Of a DNA stretch of 64,000 nucleotides, positions 2,058 through 35,079 are shown one piece after another. The notes beneath the pieces are model-generated. The model saw nothing but the letters and a program-made list of their open reading frames with translations, made no database searches and was not told where the DNA came from. Source of the stretch: a virus (Duplodnaviria > Caudoviricetes); the IMG/VR virus record IMGVR_UViG_3300042542_005523. One strand, 5' to 3'. How positions within the stretch are numbered: position 1 is the first letter of the stretch; each line of letters begins with the position of its first letter. The position numbers were made by a program, and so were the translations under genes.

Positions 2058-2861
2058 ATGAGACACATTAAACCATATAATCAACTATTTGAAAGCCAGC
2101 AAAGATTGACACAGGAGCAGAAAGACTGGCTGTATGAATGCACCACAGGAAGCTGGGAGATTAACACACAGACCGGTTTGGTTGATGTTGATGGGGATTT
2201 CTCTTGCACGGGTCAGGGTCTGTCTGATTTTAAGGGAGTGAGATTTGGAAACATTATTGAGGATTTCGATTGTGACAACAACCTCCTAACCTCACTACGG
2301 GGAGCACCACATGTGGTGGGAGGGAGCTTCGATTGCTCCGACAACGAGCTCACCTCCCTGGAGGGAGCACCGCAGAGCGTGGGTGGTGCTTTCTTTTGCT
2401 CCTACAACGAGCTCACCTCCTTGGAGGGAACACCGCAGAAAGTGAGTGGGGATTTCTTTTGCTCCTATAACGAGCTCACCTCCCTGGAGGGAGCACCACT
2501 GGAAATCGAAGAGAATTTTGATTGTGGCAACAATCAGCTCACCTCACTAGAGGGAGCACCCCAGAGCGTGGGTGGTAGTTTCGATTGCAGCAGCAACTTC
2601 CTCGTTTCCTTAGAGGGAGCACCTCAGAGCGTGGGCTATAATTTCCTTTGCCACGACAACCCAATATCCGAAAGAGTCATGAAGGGGGTGATTGAGAGGA
2701 TGAGAGGCAAGAAGATCTCATTAGAGCAGGCTGTTGCCGAGTATTGGAAGCACATCCCTCAGGAGGATAGGGTCTACTTGGCCAAACATCATCCAACTCT
2801 TCCAGAAGAAGAGAAGAGGGAATACGCGGCACTAGAGAGATTAAAGAAAAGAATCATATGA
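2058..2861 (+). CDS. LRR-like 21-aa repeat protein, paralog 1 (6 repeats)
   Basis: LTSLEGAPxxVGGxFxCxxNx repeats with 63-bp period; start moved to M39 (MRHIKPYNQLFE) by paralog alignment and the upstream GATATATA. Confidence 0.88.
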   Translation: MRHIKPYNQLFESQQRLTQEQKDWLYECTTGSWEINTQTGLVDVDGDFSCTGQGLSDFKGVRFGNIIEDFDCDNNLLTSLRGAPHVVGGSFDCSDNELTSLEGAPQSVGGAFFCSYNELTSLEGTPQKVSGDFFCSYNELTSLEGAPLEIEENFDCGNNQLTSLEGAPQSVGGSFDCSSNFLVSLEGAPQSVGYNFLCHDNPISERVMKGVIERMRGKKISLEQAVAEYWKHIPQEDRVYLAKHHPTLPEEEKREYAALERLKKRII

Positions 2862-3616
2862 GACACATTAAGAGATATAATCAGCTATTCGAGAACACCC
2901 AAGAGCTCACACAGGAGCAGAAAGACTGGCTCGATGAGTGCGTAGATGAGGACGTAAGGGGCAGAGGAGCTTGGAGCGTTAATCCGAAAACGGGACTAGT
3001 TGATATCAAGGGACTTTTTCAGTCCACAGATGAACAGCTAACCGATTTCAAGGGAGTGAGGTTTGGCAAAGTTAGCGGTGGCTTCTATTGTAATTACAAT
3101 CAACTCACGTCACTAGAGGGAGCACCACAAGAAGTGGGTGGTGATTTCTACTGTCACCATAATAGGCTCACTTCACTAGAGGGTGGTCCACGGAAAGTAG
3201 GGGGTTTTTACTATTGCAACAACAATTTGCTCACCTCCCTGGAGGGCGCACCAGAGGTAGTGCCAAGAATGTTCGTTTGCTCTCATAATAAGCTCACTTC
3301 TTTAAAGGGATGCCCTAAGAAGATCGGCTCACAATTTTTGGCCAATAACAACGAGCTCACCTCACTAGAGGGAGCACCACAGTATGTGGAAGGTCCGTTC
3401 TATCTAGGTGATAACCCAATATCTACCAGGGCTTCTGAAGGCGTGCTTAGAAGAATGATCAGGGATAGGATCACTTTAGAACAGGCTGTGGCCGATTACT
3501 GGAAGAATATACCCAGAGCAGATAAACCATATCTGGCCAAGCACAATCCCGATCTCTCACCAGAGCAGAAGAGGGGATACGAGGCACTATATAGACTTAA
3601 GACAAGAGTTATATGA
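2858..3616 (+). CDS. LRR-like repeat protein, paralog 2 (5 repeats)
   Basis: Same N-cap, repeats and C-cap; ATGA overlap with paralog 1. Confidence 0.9.
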   Translation: MRHIKRYNQLFENTQELTQEQKDWLDECVDEDVRGRGAWSVNPKTGLVDIKGLFQSTDEQLTDFKGVRFGKVSGGFYCNYNQLTSLEGAPQEVGGDFYCHHNRLTSLEGGPRKVGGFYYCNNNLLTSLEGAPEVVPRMFVCSHNKLTSLKGCPKKIGSQFLANNNELTSLEGAPQYVEGPFYLGDNPISTRASEGVLRRMIRDRITLEQAVADYWKNIPRADKPYLAKHNPDLSPEQKRGYEALYRLKTRVI

Positions 3617-4491
3617 GACACATTAAAGAATACCATCAACTATTCGAGAACACTCAGGAGTTGACGCAGGAGCAGAAGGATTGGCTTGACGAGTGTGTAA
3701 GTGGCACTTGGTGGGTTGATCCAAAAACAGGACTTGTTGATGTGGATGGAGAATTCGAATGCAAAGAGCAGGAGCTGACCGATCTTAAAGGTGTGAGATT
3801 TGGTAAAGTGAAATCGACCTTCAATTGCTCGGACAACTTTATCACTTCCCTAGAGGGAGCACCTCAGACAGTGGGTAGATATTTCAATTGCTCCAATAAC
3901 CAGCTCACCTCCTTAGAGGGAGCACCTCAGACAGTGGGCTCTAGCTTCGATTGCTCCAACAACTCGCTCACATCACTCGAGGGACTTCCCAATGGGTTTG
4001 TCTTGGGCGGGAGTTTTTATTGCTCTGAAAACTCTCTCACTTCACTAGCTGGACTTCCTGATGGATTTAGTGCGGAGGGAAATTTCAATTGCTCCGACAA
4101 CTCGCTCACTTCCCTAAAGGGAGCACCCCAGAATGTTAATGGGACTTTCAATTGCTCTGACAATCAGCTCACGTCTCTAAAGGGAGGACCGCAGAGTGTG
4201 AGAGCGGGCTTCTTTTGTGAAGACAATCAGCTCACCTCGCTCGAGGGAGCACCACAGAGACTTGAGGGTGGTTCCATTTGTTTAGGCAACCCCATTTCTG
4301 AAGGAGTCATTAAGGGAGTTCTTAAAAGGATGAGCGGCAAGAATATTTCTTTAGAACAGGCTGTGATTGCCGAATGGAGGCACGCTTCAGAGGATGATAG
4401 GGTATATCTTGCCAAGCATAATCCAGATCTCCCACCGGAGGAGAGGAAAGAATATGCGGCACTAGAGAGATTAAAGAAAAGAATCATATGA
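3613..4491 (+). CDS. LRR-like repeat protein, paralog 3 (7 repeats)
   Basis: Same architecture, two 23-aa variant units; ATGA overlap. Confidence 0.9.
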   Translation: MRHIKEYHQLFENTQELTQEQKDWLDECVSGTWWVDPKTGLVDVDGEFECKEQELTDLKGVRFGKVKSTFNCSDNFITSLEGAPQTVGRYFNCSNNQLTSLEGAPQTVGSSFDCSNNSLTSLEGLPNGFVLGGSFYCSENSLTSLAGLPDGFSAEGNFNCSDNSLTSLKGAPQNVNGTFNCSDNQLTSLKGGPQSVRAGFFCEDNQLTSLEGAPQRLEGGSICLGNPISEGVIKGVLKRMSGKNISLEQAVIAEWRHASEDDRVYLAKHNPDLPPEERKEYAALERLKKRII

Positions 4492-5288
4492 GACATATTA
4501 AGCCATACAATCAACTATTTGAAAGTCAGCAGAAGTTGACACAGGAGCAAATGGATTGGCTTGACGTCTGTGTAAGTGGCAGATGGCAAATTAATCCACA
4601 GACAGGACTTGTTGACGTAGAAGGAGATTTCGACTACGATGCAGATGCTCCGAATTTTAATGGTGTGAGATTTGGTGATATTGGTGGTGATTTCAAATGC
4701 TCTCGTAGCTCACTCACTTCCCTAGAAGGAGCACCACAGAGCGTGAGTGGCAATTTTTACTGCTCACATAACTTGCTCACATCGCTAAAGGGAGCACCTC
4801 AGTCGGTGGGTGGAAATTTCTCCTGCTCCAATAACTCTATCACCTCTCTAGAGGGTGGCCCACAGAGTGTGGGATACATTTACCAATGTGACCATAACTC
4901 TCTCACCTCACTCGAGGGAGCACCACAGAAGATTGGATGGAGTTTTGATTGTAGCCATAACCAGCTCACTTCTCTAGAGGGAGCACCTCTTAGTATTGGT
5001 GGTGATTTTGATTGCTCTCACAATAGCATCACCTCTCTAGAGGGAGCACCACAGGAAGTTGGCAGGACAACCTATTGTTACACAAATCCTATTGGACATA
5101 AGGTTTTTAAAGGAGTTATTTATAAAATGACCCAACAACAGATTCCGCTGGAGCAGGCAGTGGCAAAGGAATGGAGATACACTCCAGAGGAGGATAGGAT
5201 ATATCTTGCTAAGCATAATCCGAAGCTATCACCAGAGGAGAGGAAAGAATACGAGGCACTTGCCAGGTACAAGGAAAGAGTTATATAG
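4488..5288 (+). CDS. LRR-like repeat protein, paralog 4 (6 repeats)
   Basis: Same architecture; ATGA overlap. Confidence 0.9.
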   Translation: MRHIKPYNQLFESQQKLTQEQMDWLDVCVSGRWQINPQTGLVDVEGDFDYDADAPNFNGVRFGDIGGDFKCSRSSLTSLEGAPQSVSGNFYCSHNLLTSLKGAPQSVGGNFSCSNNSITSLEGGPQSVGYIYQCDHNSLTSLEGAPQKIGWSFDCSHNQLTSLEGAPLSIGGDFDCSHNSITSLEGAPQEVGRTTYCYTNPIGHKVFKGVIYKMTQQQIPLEQAVAKEWRYTPEEDRIYLAKHNPKLSPEERKEYEALARYKERVI

Positions 5289-5309
5289 AACCGCTTAAAG
5301 GATAATACC

Positions 5310-5822
5310 TTAGATCAACTGAGATCCGCTTCCTTTTTTGGTTCCCTTTGGTACATTTCCTGTTAGATCCCCCCATTCAAAAATCACGTCTCCGTCTGTT
5401 GTCATATAGACAGATTTAGACTCGCTAGGCGTGTTGTAGATTTCCATTGTGCACCATTTATCTGGCTCTTGCCTGTAGCTTATAGAAACCCCCGACCCGT
5501 AGTATGGGTTATCAAAAGCTTTAATGGCTTTCTCTGGCAGAATGTAATGAATGGTTTGTAGTATGCCATCCGACCATTTCATGATCTGATATGCTTTACT
5601 GTCACCAGATTTAACCAGATCTAGAGCTTCACTTCTAAGGGCTCTTTCTTCTTCCTGATTTTCCGTTTCCTTCATCTTCAATTCAGTGCCGGTTTTTCCA
5701 ATTAGGCTGGCTAATTGTTTTGCGGCTTCAACCATTCTAGGTGTTTTGTTTCTCATCTTGTTATCCGTTGAGCTATCTGTGTCCATTTCAAATAGCTGCT
5801 TAAAGCTTTTTAGTGTTTTCAT
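5310..5822 (-). CDS. Hypothetical protein with capsid-targeting-like N-terminus
   Basis: MKTLKSFKQLFE; GATATATA on the minus strand at 5828-5835. Confidence 0.8.
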   Translation of the reverse strand: MKTLKSFKQLFEMDTDSSTDNKMRNKTPRMVEAAKQLASLIGKTGTELKMKETENQEEERALRSEALDLVKSGDSKAYQIMKWSDGILQTIHYILPEKAIKAFDNPYYGSGVSISYRQEPDKWCTMEIYNTPSESKSVYMTTDGDVIFEWGDLTGNVPKGTKKGSGSQLI

Positions 5823-30048: not shown

Positions 30049-30169
30049 CAGTAAAACAATATACATCGGTGTTACTGCGGGAATCACACATATATTTGCA
30101 AAATAAATTAAAAAAGGATCTGAAAAAGACCGAAACAAAAAAGAGAATCTGATATATAAAAACCAAACA

Positions 30170-30319
30170 ATGAGAAACACTCAGAAAAATATGGCAATTA
30201 TTAACCCGGCGAATCCGAAAGGATTTATCGCAGAGGCAGTGAAGCAGCAAGGCTTTTTTGCGTGGGAGAAAGGGATATGCCCAGGTCTGGAGTTTCGATT
30301 TAGTTTACAGGAAAGATAA
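30170..30319 (+). CDS. Candidate leader peptide 1 (49 aa) of tRNA array 1
   Basis: Hand-translated MRNTQKNMAIINPANPKGFIAEAVKQQGFFAWEKGICPGLEFRFSLQER; GATATATA at 30151-30158; overlaps attenuator segment A. Confidence 0.75.
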   Translation: MRNTQKNMAIINPANPKGFIAEAVKQQGFFAWEKGICPGLEFRFSLQER

Positions 30320-30376
30320 GATTTAAACTAAATATCACATTGAAACTCCAGATCGAAAGTCTGGAGTTTTTTTTTT
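30286..30376 (+). promoter_or_regulatory. Attenuator 1: mutually exclusive antiterminator (A:B) and terminator (B:C + T10)
   Basis: A TCTGGAGTTTC 30286-96; inner stem 30298-307/30324-33; B GAAACTCCAGA 30342-52; C TCTGGAGTTT 30360-69; T run 30367-76. Confidence 0.8.
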
Positions 30377-30380
30377 ACAT

Positions 30381-30454
30381 GGGGTTATAGCTTAAATCGG
30401 TGAGAGCGACGGTCTGAAAAACCGTAGATCCGGACTCGAGGCCCGGTATCCCCA
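30381..30454 (+). tRNA. tRNA-Phe(GAA), atypical T-arm
   Basis: Anticodon arm ACGGT-CTGAAAA-ACCGT; T-loop CTCGAGG. Confidence 0.75.
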
Positions 30455-30495
30455 CAAAAGAATCTGATCAACGGATTAGATGCAGAAGATTAAAT

Positions 30496-30569
30496 ACATC
30501 ATTGGTGAAATTGGCTAATCATCTTGGACTCCAAATCCAAGGTTCTGGGTTCGAATCCTAGATGGTGTG
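30496..30569 (+). tRNA. tRNA-Trp(CCA)
   Basis: TTGGA-CTCCAAA-TCCAA; canonical T-arm. Confidence 0.92.
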
Positions 30570-30602
30570 CAGAAATAAGTTCTTTGACATATTGGAAACC
30601 AT

Positions 30603-30675
30603 AATTCCTTAGCTCAGTTGGTAGAGCGCCTCCCTTACATGGAGGAGGCCGCAGGTTCGAGCCCTGCAGGGATTA
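30603..30675 (+). tRNA. tRNA-Val(TAC)
   Basis: CCTCC-CTTACAT-GGAGG; full cloverleaf. Confidence 0.93.
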
Positions 30676-30684
30676 CTTAATTAT

Positions 30685-30757
30685 GCTCGGTTCGTCTAGA
30701 GGCCTAGGACATCCCCCTTTCACGGGGAAAACATGGATTCGAATTCCATACCGAGTA
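30685..30757 (+). tRNA. tRNA-Glu(TTC)
   Basis: TCCCC-CTTTCAC-GGGGA; full cloverleaf. Confidence 0.92.
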
Positions 30758-30830
30758 CAAACATATTAAACAAGAAATTGCCTCGCTAAACTAACCAGGT
30801 TTAGCAAGACAAAAACAGGTTTAGCATAAT

Positions 30831-30918
30831 GACCTCGTGGCGCAATTGGTAGCGCAACTGACTTTTAATCAGTAGGGAAGCTGTATAGCCGTTGTGGGTT
30901 CGAGCCCCACCGGGGTCA
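30831..30918 (+). tRNA. tRNA-Lys(TTT) with 20-nt variable region
   Basis: ACTGA-CTTTTAA-TCAGT; variable region 30874-30893. Confidence 0.85.
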
Positions 30919-30924
30919 CTTTAG

Positions 30925-31033
30925 CGATGGTGGTAACGCGCTTTGAGGAGAAAGTAGCTTTGGACCTGCAAGTCCAGTCAAGCGAAGAGTATCCAATTAG
31001 GAGGATAATTCCACTCGTCACTTGCAGGTGACG
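30925..31033 (+). ncRNA. Candidate structured RNA with complementary hairpin loops
   Basis: Hairpins TGGAC-CTGCAA-GTCCA and CGTCAC-TTGCAG-GTGACG with complementary loops, plus two more stems. Confidence 0.55.
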
Positions 31034-31038
31034 TAAAT

Positions 31039-31112
31039 GGGGTAGTAGCTCAGCTGGTTAGAGCACATGACTGTTAATCATGTGGTCATAGGTTCGAATC
31101 CTATCTACCCCG
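31039..31112 (+). tRNA. tRNA-Asn(GTT)
   Basis: CATGA-CTGTTAA-TCATG. Confidence 0.95.
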
Positions 31113-31119
31113 CTAAAAA

Positions 31120-31192
31120 GCGGAAGTAGCTCAATTGGTAGAGCGCGGCCTTGCCAAGGCCGAGGTTGCCGGATCATTCCCGGTCTTCCGCT
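31120..31192 (+). tRNA. tRNA-Gly(GCC)
   Basis: CGGCC-TTGCCAA-GGCCG; T-loop ATCATTC. Confidence 0.88.
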
Positions 31193-31200
31193 CAAAAAAT

Positions 31201-31273
31201 GCGATAGTAGCTCAATTGGTAGAGCACCGTCCTTCCAAGTCGGGGGTCGCAGGTTCGAGCCCTGTCTATCGCT
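31201..31273 (+). tRNA. tRNA-Gly(TCC)
   Basis: Loop CTTCCAA; acceptor GCGATAG/CTATCGC. Confidence 0.92.
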
Positions 31274-31284
31274 CACCCAAAGAT

Positions 31285-31356
31285 AGCGAGGTAGCTCAGA
31301 GGCAGAGCAACCGACTCATATTCGGTAGGTCAGGATCTCGGAATTCCTCCTCGCTA
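31285..31356 (+). tRNA. tRNA-Met or Ile2 (CAT), atypical T-arm
   Basis: ACCGA-CTCATAT-TCGGT; T-loop CTCGGAA; lacks initiator hallmarks. Confidence 0.72.
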
Positions 31357-31362
31357 CTATAT

Positions 31363-31433
31363 TGTCCCTTCGTCTAAGGGCAGGACAGCTGATTTTGATT
31401 CAGCTAATGGTGGTTCGAATCCATCAGGGACAA
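31363..31433 (+). tRNA. tRNA-Gln(TTG)
   Basis: GCTGA-TTTTGAT-TCAGC. Confidence 0.92.
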
Positions 31434-31444
31434 CAATTTAAAAT

Positions 31445-31519
31445 ACTCAGGTAGCTCAATTGGTTAGAGCACCTCGCTGATACCGAGGAGGCCTGAAGGT
31501 TCGAGTCCTTCTCTGAGTA
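31445..31519 (+). tRNA. tRNA-Ile(GAT)
   Basis: CCTCG-CTGATAC-CGAGG. Confidence 0.92.
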
Positions 31520-31526
31520 CTTAATT

Positions 31527-31601
31527 CGGGATGTAGATCAGTTGGATTAGATCGCCTGGTTTGGGACCAGGAGGCCGCAGGTTCGAGTCCTGCTATCCCG
31601 A
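31527..31601 (+). tRNA. tRNA-Pro(TGG)
   Basis: CCTGG-TTTGGGA-CCAGG. Confidence 0.94.
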
Positions 31602-31608
31602 CTAAAAT

Positions 31609-31681
31609 GGGCCGGTAGCTTAAGAGGCTAAAGCGCTGCACTTGCAATGCAGAATATTGGGTTCGAGTCCCACCGTGTCCA
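31609..31681 (+). tRNA. tRNA-Ala(TGC), irregular acceptor stem
   Basis: CTGCA-CTTGCAA-TGCAG; G3-U70 identity pair present. Confidence 0.82.
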
Positions 31682-31689
31682 CTAAATTT

Positions 31690-31762
31690 GCTCTCATAGC
31701 TCAATGGTCAGAGTCGGACGCTTATATCGTCAAGGTTGCAGGTTCGAGTCCTGTTGGGAGTA
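31690..31762 (+). tRNA. tRNA-Ile(TAT)
   Basis: GACG-CTTATAT-CGTC; canonical T-arm and acceptor. Confidence 0.85.
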
Positions 31763-31889
31763 CAAGTTTCCAATATAAAATTAAAAGTTCATCTGGTTTT
31801 CTGCGGAATCCTGTTCTATATTTGTAAAGTAATTAAAAACTTAGGCATGAAGGAAGGAAAGGAGTTTAAACTAAAAAAGGGTAACTAGA

Positions 31890-31988
31890 ATGGATCAAAT
31901 CGGACACGTCGTTCTCTTTACAATAATAGGATTGCTAATAGCAATGTTAGTATATCTAGCGGCATGGCAACCTAAAAAATGGAAATAA
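31890..31988 (+). CDS. Small membrane peptide (32 aa)
   Basis: Hand-translated MDQIGHVVLFTIIGLLIAMLVYLAAWQPKKWK. Confidence 0.45.
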   Translation: MDQIGHVVLFTIIGLLIAMLVYLAAWQPKKWK

Positions 31989-32210
31989 TGGGATACTGGC
32001 TCTGGGCAGATTGAAAACACACAGGTTAAAATCCTGTACTGATTACAAAAATAAAACCTCAACAAATAAAGTTGTGAGTTGTATTGAAATAGCCAATTAT
32101 AAGCCAACATAAAGCTGTTGGGTGCAGATGGAGTAATTAACCAGGAGCGCAGGCACTGATTGTGACGGTACAACAAATACCCCTCTGAGTTTGGGTTTTA
32201 TTTTAAATAT

Positions 32211-32308
32211 AGTTAGGTGGCGGAATGGTAGACGCACAAGACGGGCGATGCATTTAAAACAGAAATAAGCCTGGTCGGTTTTTACAGGTTCGAATCCTGT
32301 CCTGACTG
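32211..32308 (+). ncRNA. tRNA-like element 1 (48-nt central insert, no anticodon loop)
   Basis: AGTTAGG-TGGCGGAATGGTAGACGC-[insert]-ACAGGTTCGAATCCTGT-CCTGACT-G. Confidence 0.78.
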
Positions 32309-32321
32309 CTAAAAGAAAGTT

Positions 32322-32564
32322 ATGAATAAAATAGAGAATTACAATTTTGACAAAAATGATTGGGCACATTTCCATGATGTTATTTTAGATGTGACTTGGA
32401 ATGATGGTAAAGTGAATCTAAATCAAAAAGAAATGGAACAATTATTTTGGGAGTTACCAGAAGATATGAGAATTGATGCTCAAAAATATGGTATGAATGA
32501 TACACCTTGGAGAGATAGTCTGCGGGTATGGTATGAACGAAATAAAATGGGTAAGACTGTTTAA
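32322..32564 (+). CDS. Hypothetical protein
   Basis: 80-aa ORF between tRNA-like elements. Confidence 0.7.
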   Translation: MNKIENYNFDKNDWAHFHDVILDVTWNDGKVNLNQKEMEQLFWELPEDMRIDAQKYGMNDTPWRDSLRVWYERNKMGKTV

Positions 32565-32579
32565 TTGGTTATAAAACAT

Positions 32580-32698
32580 AGTCAGGTGGCGGAATTGGTA
32601 GACGCTGCTGTGGGGCGACACCACTCTTTTAAAAACAGCATAAGCTCTTGCAATGATGTACACATTGCAAGGTACAGGTTCAAGTCCTGTCCTGACTA
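32580..32698 (+). ncRNA. tRNA-like element 2 (68-nt central insert)
   Basis: Same scaffold; TGCTG/CAGCA stem with expanded loop and 9-bp CTTGCAATG/CATTGCAAG arm. Confidence 0.78.
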
Positions 32699-32700
32699 CT

Positions 32701-32779
32701 CTGGGCTCAGTAAAGCCTCTTATCGTAAGATAACGTAACTGAAGTGGATAACCTAGAAATAGGTGACGCTCCACTATGG
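32701..32779 (+). ncRNA. Candidate structured RNA with two GNRA hairpins
   Basis: TTATC-GTAA-GATAA inside TCAGT/ACTGA; ACCTA-GAAA-TAGGT inside AGTGGA/TCCACT. Confidence 0.55.
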
Positions 32780-32859
32780 AGTCAGGTGGCGCAATTGGAA
32801 AACGCAACTCGCGGTGTACACAGAGGAGTGAATTACAGGTTCGAGTCCTGTCCTGACTA
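32780..32859 (+). ncRNA. tRNA-like element 3 (29-nt central insert)
   Basis: Same scaffold; ACTC/GAGT stem with 15-nt loop. Confidence 0.75.
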
Positions 32860-32861
32860 CA

Positions 32862-33070
32862 CGTTCCGACTAATCATCGGATAGTATGCCTCATACGATG
32901 AGAAGTGGTGTGATAGCCACAGAGGAGAGTTGAAGGTTCGTATATACAAACCTTCCAGTTGACTACTGACGTCGGTAAAACCCTTCACGAGGGGAGCAAG
33001 ACAGTCTATTCCTAACTCAGCAATGAGGACAGCCATATCACCTGTAAGTTGGATAAATTAGGGTGTTTTT
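32862..33070 (+). ncRNA. Candidate multi-hairpin structured RNA (about 205 nt)
   Basis: At least six hand-found hairpins and long-range CCGAC/GTCGG and TAGT/ACTA pairings; no ORF. Confidence 0.55.
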
Positions 33071-33074
33071 ATAT

Positions 33075-33237
33075 AGTCAGGTGGCGGAATTGGTAGACGC
33101 TATCGTACTCAAGTAAGGCAAAGCAATGTAGATGAAACGTCGTCGCATGGTGAGTTAACACCTAAAAGTCTTTGGACTTGAAATCCAAAAAACCTTGAGT
33201 ATGTTCTACGATACAGGTTCGAATCCTGTCCTGACTA
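33075..33237 (+). ncRNA. tRNA-like element 4 (112-nt central insert)
   Basis: Same scaffold; insert closed by TACTCAAG/CTTGAGTA; contains TTTGGA-CTTGAAA-TCCAAA. Confidence 0.78.
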
Positions 33238-33262
33238 CAAAAATTAAAATCTAAGGTAATAA

Positions 33263-33544
33263 ATGAAATGCTACGAATGTAAACACAGAGGAAATGTAAT
33301 AGGCTCAGCTCATAGCAGCTGTGGTGTTATCAGAAGCACAGGTAGTGAGAAGGGACAGGAGTTAGAATTCATGCTGGCGATGGGGCAGGTCGAAATGAAA
33401 GATCAAGATGGTAACCCTATTGTTGATATAGACCCTCATGGTATTCAAAACGGATGGGCTGCTTGGCCTATAGATTTCGATCCAGTTTGGATAAGATCCT
33501 GTAAATTCTATACAGAAAAAGAGAAAACAGGTGAATTGAAATAA
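33263..33544 (+). CDS. Cys-containing hypothetical phage protein
   Basis: CYECKHR...SAHSSC...GWAAWPIDFDPVWIRSC. Confidence 0.75.
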   Translation: MKCYECKHRGNVIGSAHSSCGVIRSTGSEKGQELEFMLAMGQVEMKDQDGNPIVDIDPHGIQNGWAAWPIDFDPVWIRSCKFYTEKEKTGELK

Positions 33545-33553
33545 ATAACATAT

Positions 33554-33627
33554 GCTACCGTGGTGTAACTGAATAACACGTCTAACTACGGATTAGAAGA
33601 GCGAGGGTTTGAATCCTTCCGGTAGTA
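33554..33627 (+). tRNA. tRNA-Arg(ACG)
   Basis: TCTAA-CTACGGA-TTAGA. Confidence 0.9.
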
Positions 33628-33685
33628 CAAAAAATAATCGAAATTAGAAGAAACAAAAAGATGTTCTGATATATAATAACATAAT

Positions 33686-33778
33686 ATGAAAAACTTGATC
33701 CATACATCCTTACATTTATCCACCACGAGTACCACTTGTGATTCGGATTTATTGTGGAGGAGGCTAATGGATCAATAA
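33686..33778 (+). CDS. Candidate leader peptide 2 (30 aa) of tRNA array 2
   Basis: Hand-translated MKNLIHTSLHLSTTSTTCDSDLLWRRLMDQ; GATATATA at 33668-33675. Confidence 0.78.
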   Translation: MKNLIHTSLHLSTTSTTCDSDLLWRRLMDQ

Positions 33779-33830
33779 TAATATTGAATTTTGATTCTGA
33801 AAAAGCCTCCCCTAAAAAGGAGGCTTTTTT
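33755..33830 (+). promoter_or_regulatory. Attenuator 2: antiterminator (A:B) versus terminator (B:C + T run)
   Basis: A GGAGGCT 33759-65; inner TCAATA-ATAA-TATTGA; B AAAAAGCCTCC 33800-10; C GGAGGCTTTTTT 33819-30. Confidence 0.8.
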
Positions 33831-33860
33831 ATTGGCTCTTTGATTTATTAGATTTAACAC

Positions 33861-33944
33861 GGAAGAGGAATCACAGCGGCCTGTGAGCTAGTCTTGAAAA
33901 CTATGCGTACCTCCGGGTATTGGGATCGACACCTACCTCTTCCG
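33861..33944 (+). tRNA. tRNA-Ser(TGA), 8/4 acceptor/T-stem type
   Basis: GGAAGAGG/CCTCTTCC 8 bp; T-stem TGGG/CCTA 4 bp; loop CTTGAAA; 6-bp D-stem; variable arm. Confidence 0.8.
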
Positions 33945-33952
33945 CTTTTTCC

Positions 33953-34028
33953 GGGGCCTGTGGTGTAATGGCTTGCATAACACACTGTCACTGTGTAGGT
34001 CGGGGTTCGAATCCCCCAGGTCCCGCCA
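33953..34028 (+). tRNA. tRNA-Asp(GTC), 8/4 type, encoded CCA
   Basis: GGGGCCTG/CAGGTCCC 8 bp; GGGG/CCCC T-stem; ACACA-CTGTCAC-TGTGT; G73 then CCA. Confidence 0.85.
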
Positions 34029-34030
34029 AT

Positions 34031-34118
34031 GGAAGATGATCCTAAACGGAGATAGGATCCGCCTGCTAAGCGAGATGTTCGGGTAAAACCGGATGAGGTT
34101 CGATCCCTCCGTCTTCCG
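34031..34118 (+). tRNA. tRNA-Ser(GCT), 8/4 type
   Basis: GGAAGATG/CGTCTTCC 8 bp; GAGG/CCTC T-stem; loop CTGCTAA; variable arm. Confidence 0.8.
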
Positions 34119-34123
34119 CAAAC

Positions 34124-34196
34124 TCCAGAGTAGCTCAATTGGTAGAGCCCTTGTTTTGTAAACAAGTGGTTGTCGGTTCGATTCCGTCCTCTGGAT
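34124..34196 (+). tRNA. tRNA-Thr(TGT)
   Basis: CTTGT-TTTGTAA-ACAAG. Confidence 0.92.
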
Positions 34197-34201
34197 CTAA
34201 T

Positions 34202-34274
34202 GACACCGTGTCTGAATGGTTTAGGTCCAGGTCTGCAAAACCTTGGTACGTGGGTTCGAATCCCTCCGGTGTCT
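34202..34274 (+). tRNA. tRNA-Cys(GCA)
   Basis: Loop CTGCAAA; acceptor GACACCG/CGGTGTC. Confidence 0.9.
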
Positions 34275-34280
34275 CTATAT

Positions 34281-34355
34281 GGTGTCTATAGTGTCAGCGG
34301 TATAGCACGACGGGTTGTGGTTCCGTTAGCACCAGTTCGAATCTGGTTAGACACA
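34281..34355 (+). tRNA. tRNA-His(GTG)
   Basis: ACGGG-TTGTGGT-TCCGT; G-1 encoded, discriminator A rather than the usual bacterial C. Confidence 0.88.
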
Positions 34356-34362
34356 CTAATAA

Positions 34363-34447
34363 GCCCCGGTGGCGAAACAGGCTATACGCACCAGACTTAA
34401 GATCTGGCGATCAGTGAATCGTGTGGGTTCGAATCCCACCCGGGGTA
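34363..34447 (+). tRNA. tRNA-Leu(TAA)
   Basis: CCAGA-CTTAAGA-TCTGG; variable arm. Confidence 0.93.
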
Positions 34448-34479
34448 CATAATTTTTTGTACTTTGATATATAGGTATT

Positions 34480-35079
34480 ATGATTGAAGGATACAAAAAA
34501 TACCAAAACGGATTTGTCAAAGACCCAGCTTCTTACTTGTTAAAAGAAGAAGAAAACGTTACTGCCAGCACAAGCCTGGTAACACCGAAAACTCTTAATG
34601 ATTTTTCGGAATCAATATCATCCTCCCTGAATGAGAGAATCGGTGACGAGTATGCTGCTCACTATTTCTATAGAAATGCTGCCAATTGGTGTAAAAATGT
34701 CAATTATAAAAATGCCACAGCATATTTTGAAGCTGAGGCTGCCAGCGAATTAGATCACGCTAAGGGATTACAAGACTACCTGACACAGTGGAACCTAATG
34801 CCTGCTATTCCTGCTGCTCCAACGCAGCATTCTTTTGAAAATCTAGCAGATATTATCAATAAGGCTTACGAGATAGAGTATGAGTTAATGCTTAAATACT
34901 CCGACAATCAAAAAGAGTTCTTAAATGATCACCCAGCAACTTTCAATTTTATTCAGAAATATGTTGATATACAGAATGAAGCTGTTGCTGAATACTCGGA
35001 TCTTTTAAATGCTCTTAATCTAGTGGACATCAACAATAGATTGGATGTCCTTTACTTCGAGAACAATTACTTCGGATAG
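34480..35079 (+). CDS. ftnA: Non-heme ferritin
   Basis: ERIGDEYAAHYFY...EAASELDHA...EIE...QNEA ferroxidase-centre pattern. Confidence 0.8.
   Translation: MIEGYKKYQNGFVKDPASYLLKEEENVTASTSLVTPKTLNDFSESISSSLNERIGDEYAAHYFYRNAANWCKNVNYKNATAYFEAEAASELDHAKGLQDYLTQWNLMPAIPAAPTQHSFENLADIINKAYEIEYELMLKYSDNQKEFLNDHPATFNFIQKYVDIQNEAVAEYSDLLNALNLVDINNRLDVLYFENNYFG

Follow-up and report, generated by a model that had tools for sequence, protein, structure and literature searches.

In the tRNA array of an uncultured phage, a 119-nt spacer between the genes for tRNA-Lys and tRNA-Asn carries two hairpins whose loops are perfectly complementary, and it is kept as one constant module while the tRNA genes on both sides are exchanged among relatives. 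We tentatively prefer the reading that it gives rise to a lineage-specific structured spacer RNA, which would be excised by tRNA processing, act in cis in folding or processing and possibly be stable. A neutral spacer that hitch-hikes with its neighbours is nearly as likely.

The window, by which we mean the whole stretch of 64,000 nucleotides analysed, is part of an uncultured jumbo phage from lake water. Its neighbouring genes match phage families, and at least 14 metagenome runs from lakes and freshwater contain DNA of this phage. ARAGORN and Rfam located 14 tRNA genes on one strand between 30381 and 31763. The gaps between these genes are mostly 6–10 nt; longer ones measure 32, 40 and 72 nt, besides the gap of 119 nt between tRNA-Lys and tRNA-Asn. 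The upstream neighbour of the spacer, tRNA-Lys(UUU), is a type A allele with a class-II-sized variable region at 30831–30919 on the plus strand (30831–30918/9 in ARAGORN; 64.8 bits with Rfam RF00005), and the downstream neighbour, tRNA-Asn(GUU), lies at 31039–31113 on the same strand (ARAGORN; Rfam, 77.5 bits). The original prediction had placed the element between these two genes at 30925–31033, and ARAGORN and Rfam agreed with this placement; the true spacer, as read from the sequence and the ARAGORN tRNA borders, is slightly wider, at 30920–31038 on the plus strand. CCA is not encoded in the tRNA genes here, tRNA-Lys included. A scan for promoters and terminators gave no promoter-like or terminator-like site within 30920–31038, and UAAAU follows hairpin 2. 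The location in a same-strand tRNA array and the lack of such sites within the spacer argue for an RNA that would be excised from a longer transcript.

Hairpin 1 (TGGAC/CTGCAA/GTCCA; 30961–30976, plus strand), which forms the core of P3 in the fold described below, has a 5-bp stem, a 6-nt loop, CUGCAA, at 30966–30971, and a predicted energy of −5.1 kcal/mol alone. Hairpin 2, or P5 (CGTCAC/TTGCAG/GTGACG; 31016–31033, plus strand), has a stem of 6–7 bp, the loop UUGCAG at 31022–31027, and an energy of −8.0 kcal/mol alone; it can alternatively be drawn as a UGCA tetraloop closed by U-G, and its 3ʹ end is 5 nt short of tRNA-Asn. Both hairpins, the exact reverse complementarity of their 6-nt loops and the extension of this complementarity to 10 bp had been proposed from the letters alone, and all were confirmed. 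The repeat search returned a perfect 10-nt inverted repeat (100% complementary), with the 5ʹ arm ACCTGCAAGT at 30964–30973 and the 3ʹ arm ACTTGCAGGT at 31020–31029, both on the plus strand, and the two arms pair with each other in the alternative fold. The spacer thus contains two stable hairpins with Watson–Crick complementary loops, the arrangement expected of a kissing-loop candidate.

To gauge chance, pairs of hairpins (stem of at least 5, loop of 4–8) were searched for in the window and in shuffled 64-kb sequences. The window contains a single pair of neighbouring hairpins in which 6 or more loop bases are complementary, trivial tRNA T-loops aside, compared with a mean of 0.175 in the shuffled sequences, 6 out of 40 of which had one or more. 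The pair is therefore unusual for a spacer of 119 nt and only marginal after a scan of the whole window. The near-palindromic motif ACYTGCARGT has two sites in the 64 kb, both of them here, against 0.22 expected, and two sites were reached in 2 of 100 shuffles; across 166 loci checked, the motif was present in spacer homologs only. The window has 32 perfect inverted repeats of 10 bp within 100 nt, compared with 9.6 in shuffles, so that repeats of this kind are common here.

The minimum free energy (MFE) of the whole spacer is −29.8 kcal/mol, no more stable than that of shuffled sequences (z = −0.73). Both the RNAalifold consensus and the MFE structure predict a four-way junction of helices P1–P4 (30929–31015, plus strand) followed by hairpin P5. 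Pair probabilities in the junction are about 0.2 for P1 (30929–33/31011–15), about 0.6 for P2 (30938–44/30951–58), and about 0.7 for both P3 (30960–65/30972–77) and P4 (30990–94/31003–07). In ViennaRNA, the two-hairpin fold has an energy of −29.8 kcal/mol and a share of about 70% of the ensemble; for the fold that contains the long-range helix of 10 bp, the values are −29.3 kcal/mol and about 27%. As the two are nearly isoenergetic and both populated, the spacer RNA is predicted to be bistable, and the 10-bp long-range helix is just as good a candidate in these models as a kissing complex. The latter could be accommodated only with steric difficulty alongside the predicted P1 helix, which directly adjoins hairpin 2 with no linker in between. 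Additional stems had also been proposed. Their complementarity does exist, and the inner ATCC/GGAT stem reaches a probability of 0.74, but CGCT(T)TGA/TCAAGCG (about 0.05) and the outer GAGT/ACTC (0.05) are minor in the ensemble. An alternative hairpin pairing 31001 with 31011, where the haplotype L121 has a double change from G-C to A-U, was also considered and set aside: it has only 4 bp and a probability of 0.05, and the same two changes are explained by a loop change and a G-U pair in P1.

Close relatives were traced by variants of the leader peptide upstream of the array, and also by an 18-mer scan of metagenome contigs, with haplotypes taken from NCBI, JGI, ENA and Logan assemblies. We obtained seven full-length haplotypes and a partial eighth (a contig from an RNA library), which stem from several studies and belong to very close relatives only. 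Their spacers are 118–120 nt long, 91%–99% identical among each other and 95%–99% identical to the window, and the largest pairwise difference is 11/120. A spacer was found in every relative with a Lys–Asn junction. The complementarity of the loops, on whose preservation in homologs the original prediction was staked, is retained, as both 6-nt loops are letter-for-letter unchanged in all seven full-length haplotypes. The metagenome scan with an invariant 18-mer gave 4 true homologs and 11 chance matches. When the array was compared by BLAST with 50,697 phage records (INPHARED), there were tRNA matches only and no spacer homolog, and megablast with 24 kb returned nothing. Exact-pattern scans of IMG/VR with two spacer 20–23-mers gave 0 matches; 94 related IMG/VR loci, reached via two neighbouring proteins, held no spacer homolog by blastn or by the covariance model R1 over 1.6 Mb; and the scan of GTDB genomes gave 12 chance matches and no bacterial homolog. 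Outside the narrow clade, the phage-record, IMG/VR, metagenome and GTDB scans thus found no homolog. The 3ʹ end of tRNA-Lys was tried as a search anchor as well and was abandoned, having retrieved 4 unrelated arrays, and the array was absent from the loci reached through proteins P0041 and P0042.

Some relatives do without the spacer. The entire Lys–spacer–Asn–Gly block is missing from L131 and L132, and from L135 and L136 the entire tRNA island, indicating that the spacer is dispensable. In L131 (6068–6302) and L132 (2005–2239), the missing part runs from inside tRNA-Lys to tRNA-Gly(UCC); similar D-arm sequence lies at the junction, pointing to a deletion by recombination between tRNA genes. 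L135 (5328–6006) and L136 are about 92% identical and lack the island at full extent (window ~30050–35040), with a single tRNA-Cys present in its place; the tRNA island is therefore accessory.

To describe the substitutions, we numbered spacer positions as the window coordinate minus 30919. There were 10 substitutions, all of them transitions, against about 70% transitions in the neighbourhood (roughly p = 0.03). Six are located in consensus stems, where five keep the pair as G-U or A-U (positions 10, 45, 92, 97, and 101) and one breaks it (position 87); the remaining four are unpaired in the consensus, and position 64 would stay G-U in the MFE fold. The P1 pairs 10–96 and 14–92 are kept despite one-sided changes, and the P4 pair 72–87 is broken in two of the seven sequences. 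In hairpin 1, the recurrent change A30964G leaves its pair as G-U, and so do C31016U and A31020G in hairpin 2. At 30964 and 31020, recurrent A>G changes leave the RNA paired and disrupt the DNA palindrome, which favours an RNA-level reading over a DNA-level one. The probability of at most one disruption among 10 random transitions was estimated from the RNAalifold structure at about 0.24, which is not significant. There are no compensatory pairs, and all six loop–loop pairs are invariant in seven sequences that are only 1%–9% diverged; because both loops are invariant, covariation at this depth neither supports nor refutes the predicted fold or the putative kissing interaction.

The rate of change was also compared with that of the surroundings. 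L125 and L121 have identical flanking tRNAs (0/78 and 0/73 changes) and differ at 7/119 spacer positions; the spacer is therefore less constrained than the tRNAs and could be neutral. All four allele combinations were seen at sites 45, 64, and 101, indicating recurrent mutation or recombination inside the spacer. On the other hand, the divergence of the Phe–Trp and Trp–Val spacers reaches 22%–24%, compared with the maximum of 11/120 for the Lys–Asn spacer, and in L109 and L128, whose spacer is 98%–99% identical, an upstream protein gene has only 81% identity. This lower divergence is among the grounds for the excised-RNA reading.

Comparison of window positions 30381–31113 with L109, L123, L125, L121, and L152 revealed that the array is a mosaic, with two to four discrete alleles per tRNA slot (Trp, Val, Glu, Lys, and Asn) that are freely combined. 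The Lys–Asn spacer is a single allele throughout this mosaic, and the allele breakpoints recur at spacer borders. The tRNA-Lys alleles are of type A, long-armed and 88–89 nt, or of type B, 78 nt with an enlarged D-loop; the two have the acceptor stem alone in common and show 33–36 differences over about 92 aligned positions. An example of a type B tRNA-Lys(UUU) is found at L121:708–785, and a 91-nt tRNA-Lys(UUU) is also present in other uncultured phages (L097:3933–4023; L062:4624). For tRNA-Asn, at least four alleles occur in relatives, with 8–19 differences over about 75 positions, mainly in the D-loop and anticodon stem. Meanwhile, tRNA-Phe and the leader/attenuator are nearly invariant across the mosaic arrays.

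Endonuclease genes come and go upstream of the spacer in relatives, and the window itself has none at those array sites. Between tRNA-Glu and tRNA-Lys, L109 has a gene for a GIY-YIG Seg-like endonuclease (5163–5792; phrog_314, E 2e-41) and L110 has another endonuclease gene (4295–5032). Further down the array, L132, which has no tRNA-Lys, carries a free-standing HNH/DUF559-like endonuclease gene (2545–3387). The genes between tRNA-Glu and tRNA-Lys recall segB of the T4 tRNA cluster, whose product, a GIY-YIG homing endonuclease, cleaves tRNA genes and causes co-conversion (PMC2330249). The recognition sequence of SegB-type enzymes is that of the tRNA T-loop, not a palindrome (PMC2330249). In L109 and L128, the two endonuclease-bearing haplotypes that were compared, the T-loops of tRNA-Asn (GGTTCGAAACC) and tRNA-Lys (GGTTCGAGTCC) are altered, in a way reminiscent of SegB-site immunity. 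Co-conversion driven by such endonucleases, rather than selection, could account for much of the sameness of the spacer.

Under the preferred reading of a structured, excised RNA, the spacer would be transcribed together with the first tRNA array as part of one polycistronic precursor. The 3ʹ end of the spacer RNA would arise when RNase P matures the 5ʹ end of tRNA-Asn (31038/31039), and its 5ʹ end through processing by an RNase Z-type enzyme, or by RNase E plus an exonuclease, after the discriminator A30918 of the CCA-less tRNA-Lys. By the established rules of tRNA maturation, the product should be about 120 nt long and bear a 5ʹ phosphate. It is predicted to fold mainly into local hairpins, with hairpins 1 and 2 each about 70% populated, and the hairpin loops might then either kiss (6 bp) or refold into the long-range helix of 10 bp. 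Its likeliest role would be that of a module for folding and processing, one that separates the adjacent pre-tRNAs and presents them correctly, and it may persist as a small stable RNA in the manner of the T4-type RNA species I and II. A 206-nt contig from the RNA-library run X15 covers 30831–31022, that is, tRNA-Lys and spacer, and carries A30964G and C30983U, both of which preserve pairing. A contig cannot show transcription, strand, ends or abundance, and the library may contain DNA; we set this one aside as proof of transcription. It spans tRNA-Lys and spacer, and this, together with the precedent of T4 species I and II (PMC2330249), is consistent with the excised-RNA reading.

The same reading draws further on the length, 118–120 nt being kept although flanking alleles diverge and endonuclease genes come and go, on the invariant loops, on the exclusive occurrence of transitions and on the five of six stem changes that keep pairing. 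It is weakened by the unremarkable z-score, the low probability of P1, the lack of compensatory changes and a substitution pattern short of significance, and also by a spacer that changes faster than flanking tRNAs of the same allele, by possible co-conversion, by the loss of the block in relatives and by the lack of a distant homolog in our scans. Most of these weaknesses speak for the spacer as neutral, leftover DNA in a recombination-prone tRNA array, which would look conserved through recent kinship or through homing-endonuclease co-conversion with its neighbours, and whose hairpins and complementary loops would be two chance copies of a near-palindrome. Such an account is quite conceivable and competes closely with the preferred one. 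A fold no better than shuffles and without covariation would be expected of it, as would a hairpin pair that is marginal window-wide, and it fits with dispensability in L131 and L132, with GIY-YIG and other endonuclease genes adjoining in relatives, with the documented SegB-type homing and co-conversion in tRNA clusters (PMC2330249), and with the failure of the metagenome, 94-locus and GTDB scans to find distant homologs. It sits less well with the array as a whole: the other spacers are mostly 6–10 nt, yet the full length here is kept in all haplotypes, the other long spacers have either diverged much further or been replaced, the 10 of 10 transitions exceed the local share, and allele breakpoints fall repeatedly at the spacer borders.

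The remaining explanations are less probable. A kissing-loop or bistable RNA acting in trans as a regulator, sponge or decoy, through loop–loop pairing or a switch of fold, seems unlikely to us. It would make sense of loops that are perfectly complementary and invariant in all haplotypes, of two folds within 0.5 kcal/mol and of stems that differ in sequence while both remain self-complementary, and loop–loop complexes with six fully paired bases are sterically possible, as in TAR/TAR* and ColE1 RNA I/II. However, loop invariance is uninformative at such low divergence, and an intramolecular kiss would probably compete with the junction fold, given that hairpin 2 abuts P1 without a linker. We consider it a little more doubtful still that a bistable or kissing-loop RNA of about 120 nt from the tRNA precursor acts in trans during infection and is kept constant while the surrounding tRNAs are swapped in an arms race; an RNA of this kind could be a sponge or decoy that ties up a host factor which binds RNA or targets tRNAs. 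Alternatively, the spacer might act as DNA, with two near-palindromic 10-bp sites 56 bp apart (ACYTGCARGT) to which a dimeric protein would bind, for instance a regulator or an enzyme of homing or recombination that acts on the array. The restriction of the motif to this place in 64 kb and to spacer homologs among the loci checked, and the endonuclease genes inserted nearby in relatives, would suit a binding site, but we regard one as improbable: the recurrent A>G at the first base of either copy breaks the palindrome and keeps RNA G-U pairs, the outer flanks of the two copies are unlike and each self-complementary, as expected of hairpins rather than of a shared protein site, and SegB-type enzymes read T-loop sequence (PMC2330249). 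Least probable by our estimate, and already largely refuted, is a decayed tRNA or tRNA-scaffold gene, in which the four-way junction would be what is left of a tRNA that once stood between Lys and Asn. RNAalifold and MFE do give a junction of about tRNA size (30929–31015), and tRNA-shaped scaffold RNAs lie 1.2 kb downstream in the same phage; yet the tRNA model RF00005 has no match at E up to 10 and ARAGORN none, T-loop and D-loop motifs are lacking, stem and linker lengths are wrong, P1 is weak, and the spacer bears no resemblance to the scaffold consensus.

The element could not be assigned to a known family when it was proposed, and the covariance search with Rfam release 15, which included self-cleaving ribozymes and tRNA-like elements, likewise placed no family on the hairpin region even at E = 1. 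The spacer matches were at chance level: REN-SRE with 13.2 bits (threshold 41; E 1.5) and YrlA with 15.6 bits (threshold 69; E 1.9), the latter lying mostly over tRNA-Lys. The Rfam 15 covariance models for hammerhead, twister, hairpin, and HDV-like ribozymes found none in the spacer. Several further candidates were rejected. An intrinsic terminator or attenuator would need a GC-rich hairpin with a U run, which is absent from 30920–31038. A small protein gene was dismissed on the grounds that the open reading frames at 30894–31031 (plus) and 30869–31021 (minus) start inside tRNA-Lys, that L125 has a 1-nt deletion, and that variable sites have no period of three. The Shine–Dalgarno-like AGGAGG at 30999–31004 lacks a suitably spaced start codon, and L121 has lost it (G31001A). 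The likeness of the loops to the anticodon loops of tRNA-Cys(GCA) and tRNA-Ala(UGC) would arise with any UGCA-containing loop, and the loops here have 6 rather than 7 nucleotides.

Phage tRNA clusters are now viewed as tool kits for counter-defence and translation. To our knowledge, the non-tRNA RNAs within them are almost unstudied, and species I and II of T4 have stood unexplained for 50 years. T4-type tRNA regions carry genes for these two RNA species (PMC2330249), rnaC and rnaD, which specify small non-tRNA RNAs. Their genes are interspersed with phage tRNA genes of like orientation, and the RNAs mature from precursors shared with the tRNAs. The spacer shares their position between same-strand phage tRNA genes, and just as the T4-type cluster hosts the GIY-YIG homing endonuclease gene segB (PMC2330249), arrays of its relatives carry a GIY-YIG Seg-like gene. 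It differs in having no sequence similarity to rnaC or rnaD (BLAST, 50,697 phage records) and in being shorter than species I. A bacterial parallel comes from the external (3ʹ) and internal transcribed spacers of E. coli tRNA operons, among them 3ʹETS-leuZ, which Lalaouna et al. reportedly described in 2015 as a sponge for sRNAs. It too would be a by-product of tRNA precursor processing that functions by base pairing; in contrast to the phage spacer, it is bacterial and Hfq-dependent, pairs with known sRNAs and is not built on two complementary hairpin loops. ColE1 RNA I/RNA II, HIV-1 DIS, and TAR/TAR* resemble the spacer in their two hairpins with fully complementary 6-nt loops and a possible extended duplex, but there the pairing is between two RNAs and its function is demonstrated, whereas here both loops lie in one RNA of 119 nt and constitute pairing potential only. 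Judged by its sequence, the spacer appears to be clade-restricted and not homologous to a known family, and to be like T4 species I and II and E. coli tRNA-operon spacers in kind. It offers a compact and clearly bounded case, in which one constant RNA-like module stands amid exchanged tRNA-Lys and tRNA-Asn alleles beside homing endonuclease genes. If it is a stable RNA, it would be a simple and testable model for phage small RNAs that derive from precursors and have a loop–loop switch built in; if not, it would exemplify how endonuclease-driven mosaicism can mimic conservation.

Two further observations concern other parts of the island. The Glu–Lys spacer (window 30759–30830, 72 nt) contains a tandem 14-nt repeat, AACCAGGTTTAGCA / AAACAGGTTTAGCA, plus a 14-bp hairpin, and relatives have endonuclease genes or merely 9 nt at exactly this position. 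Within it, TCGCTAAA is complementary to TTTAGCGA at the start of the Lys–Asn spacer; a conserved pairing of these 8-bp complements around tRNA-Lys (30783–90 with 30920–27) was rejected, as the upstream partner is missing in most relatives. Motifs of 30–40 nt from the tRNA-scaffold RNAs at window 32205–33250 recur many times in the arrays of related phages (L005, L019, L070, L080, and others).
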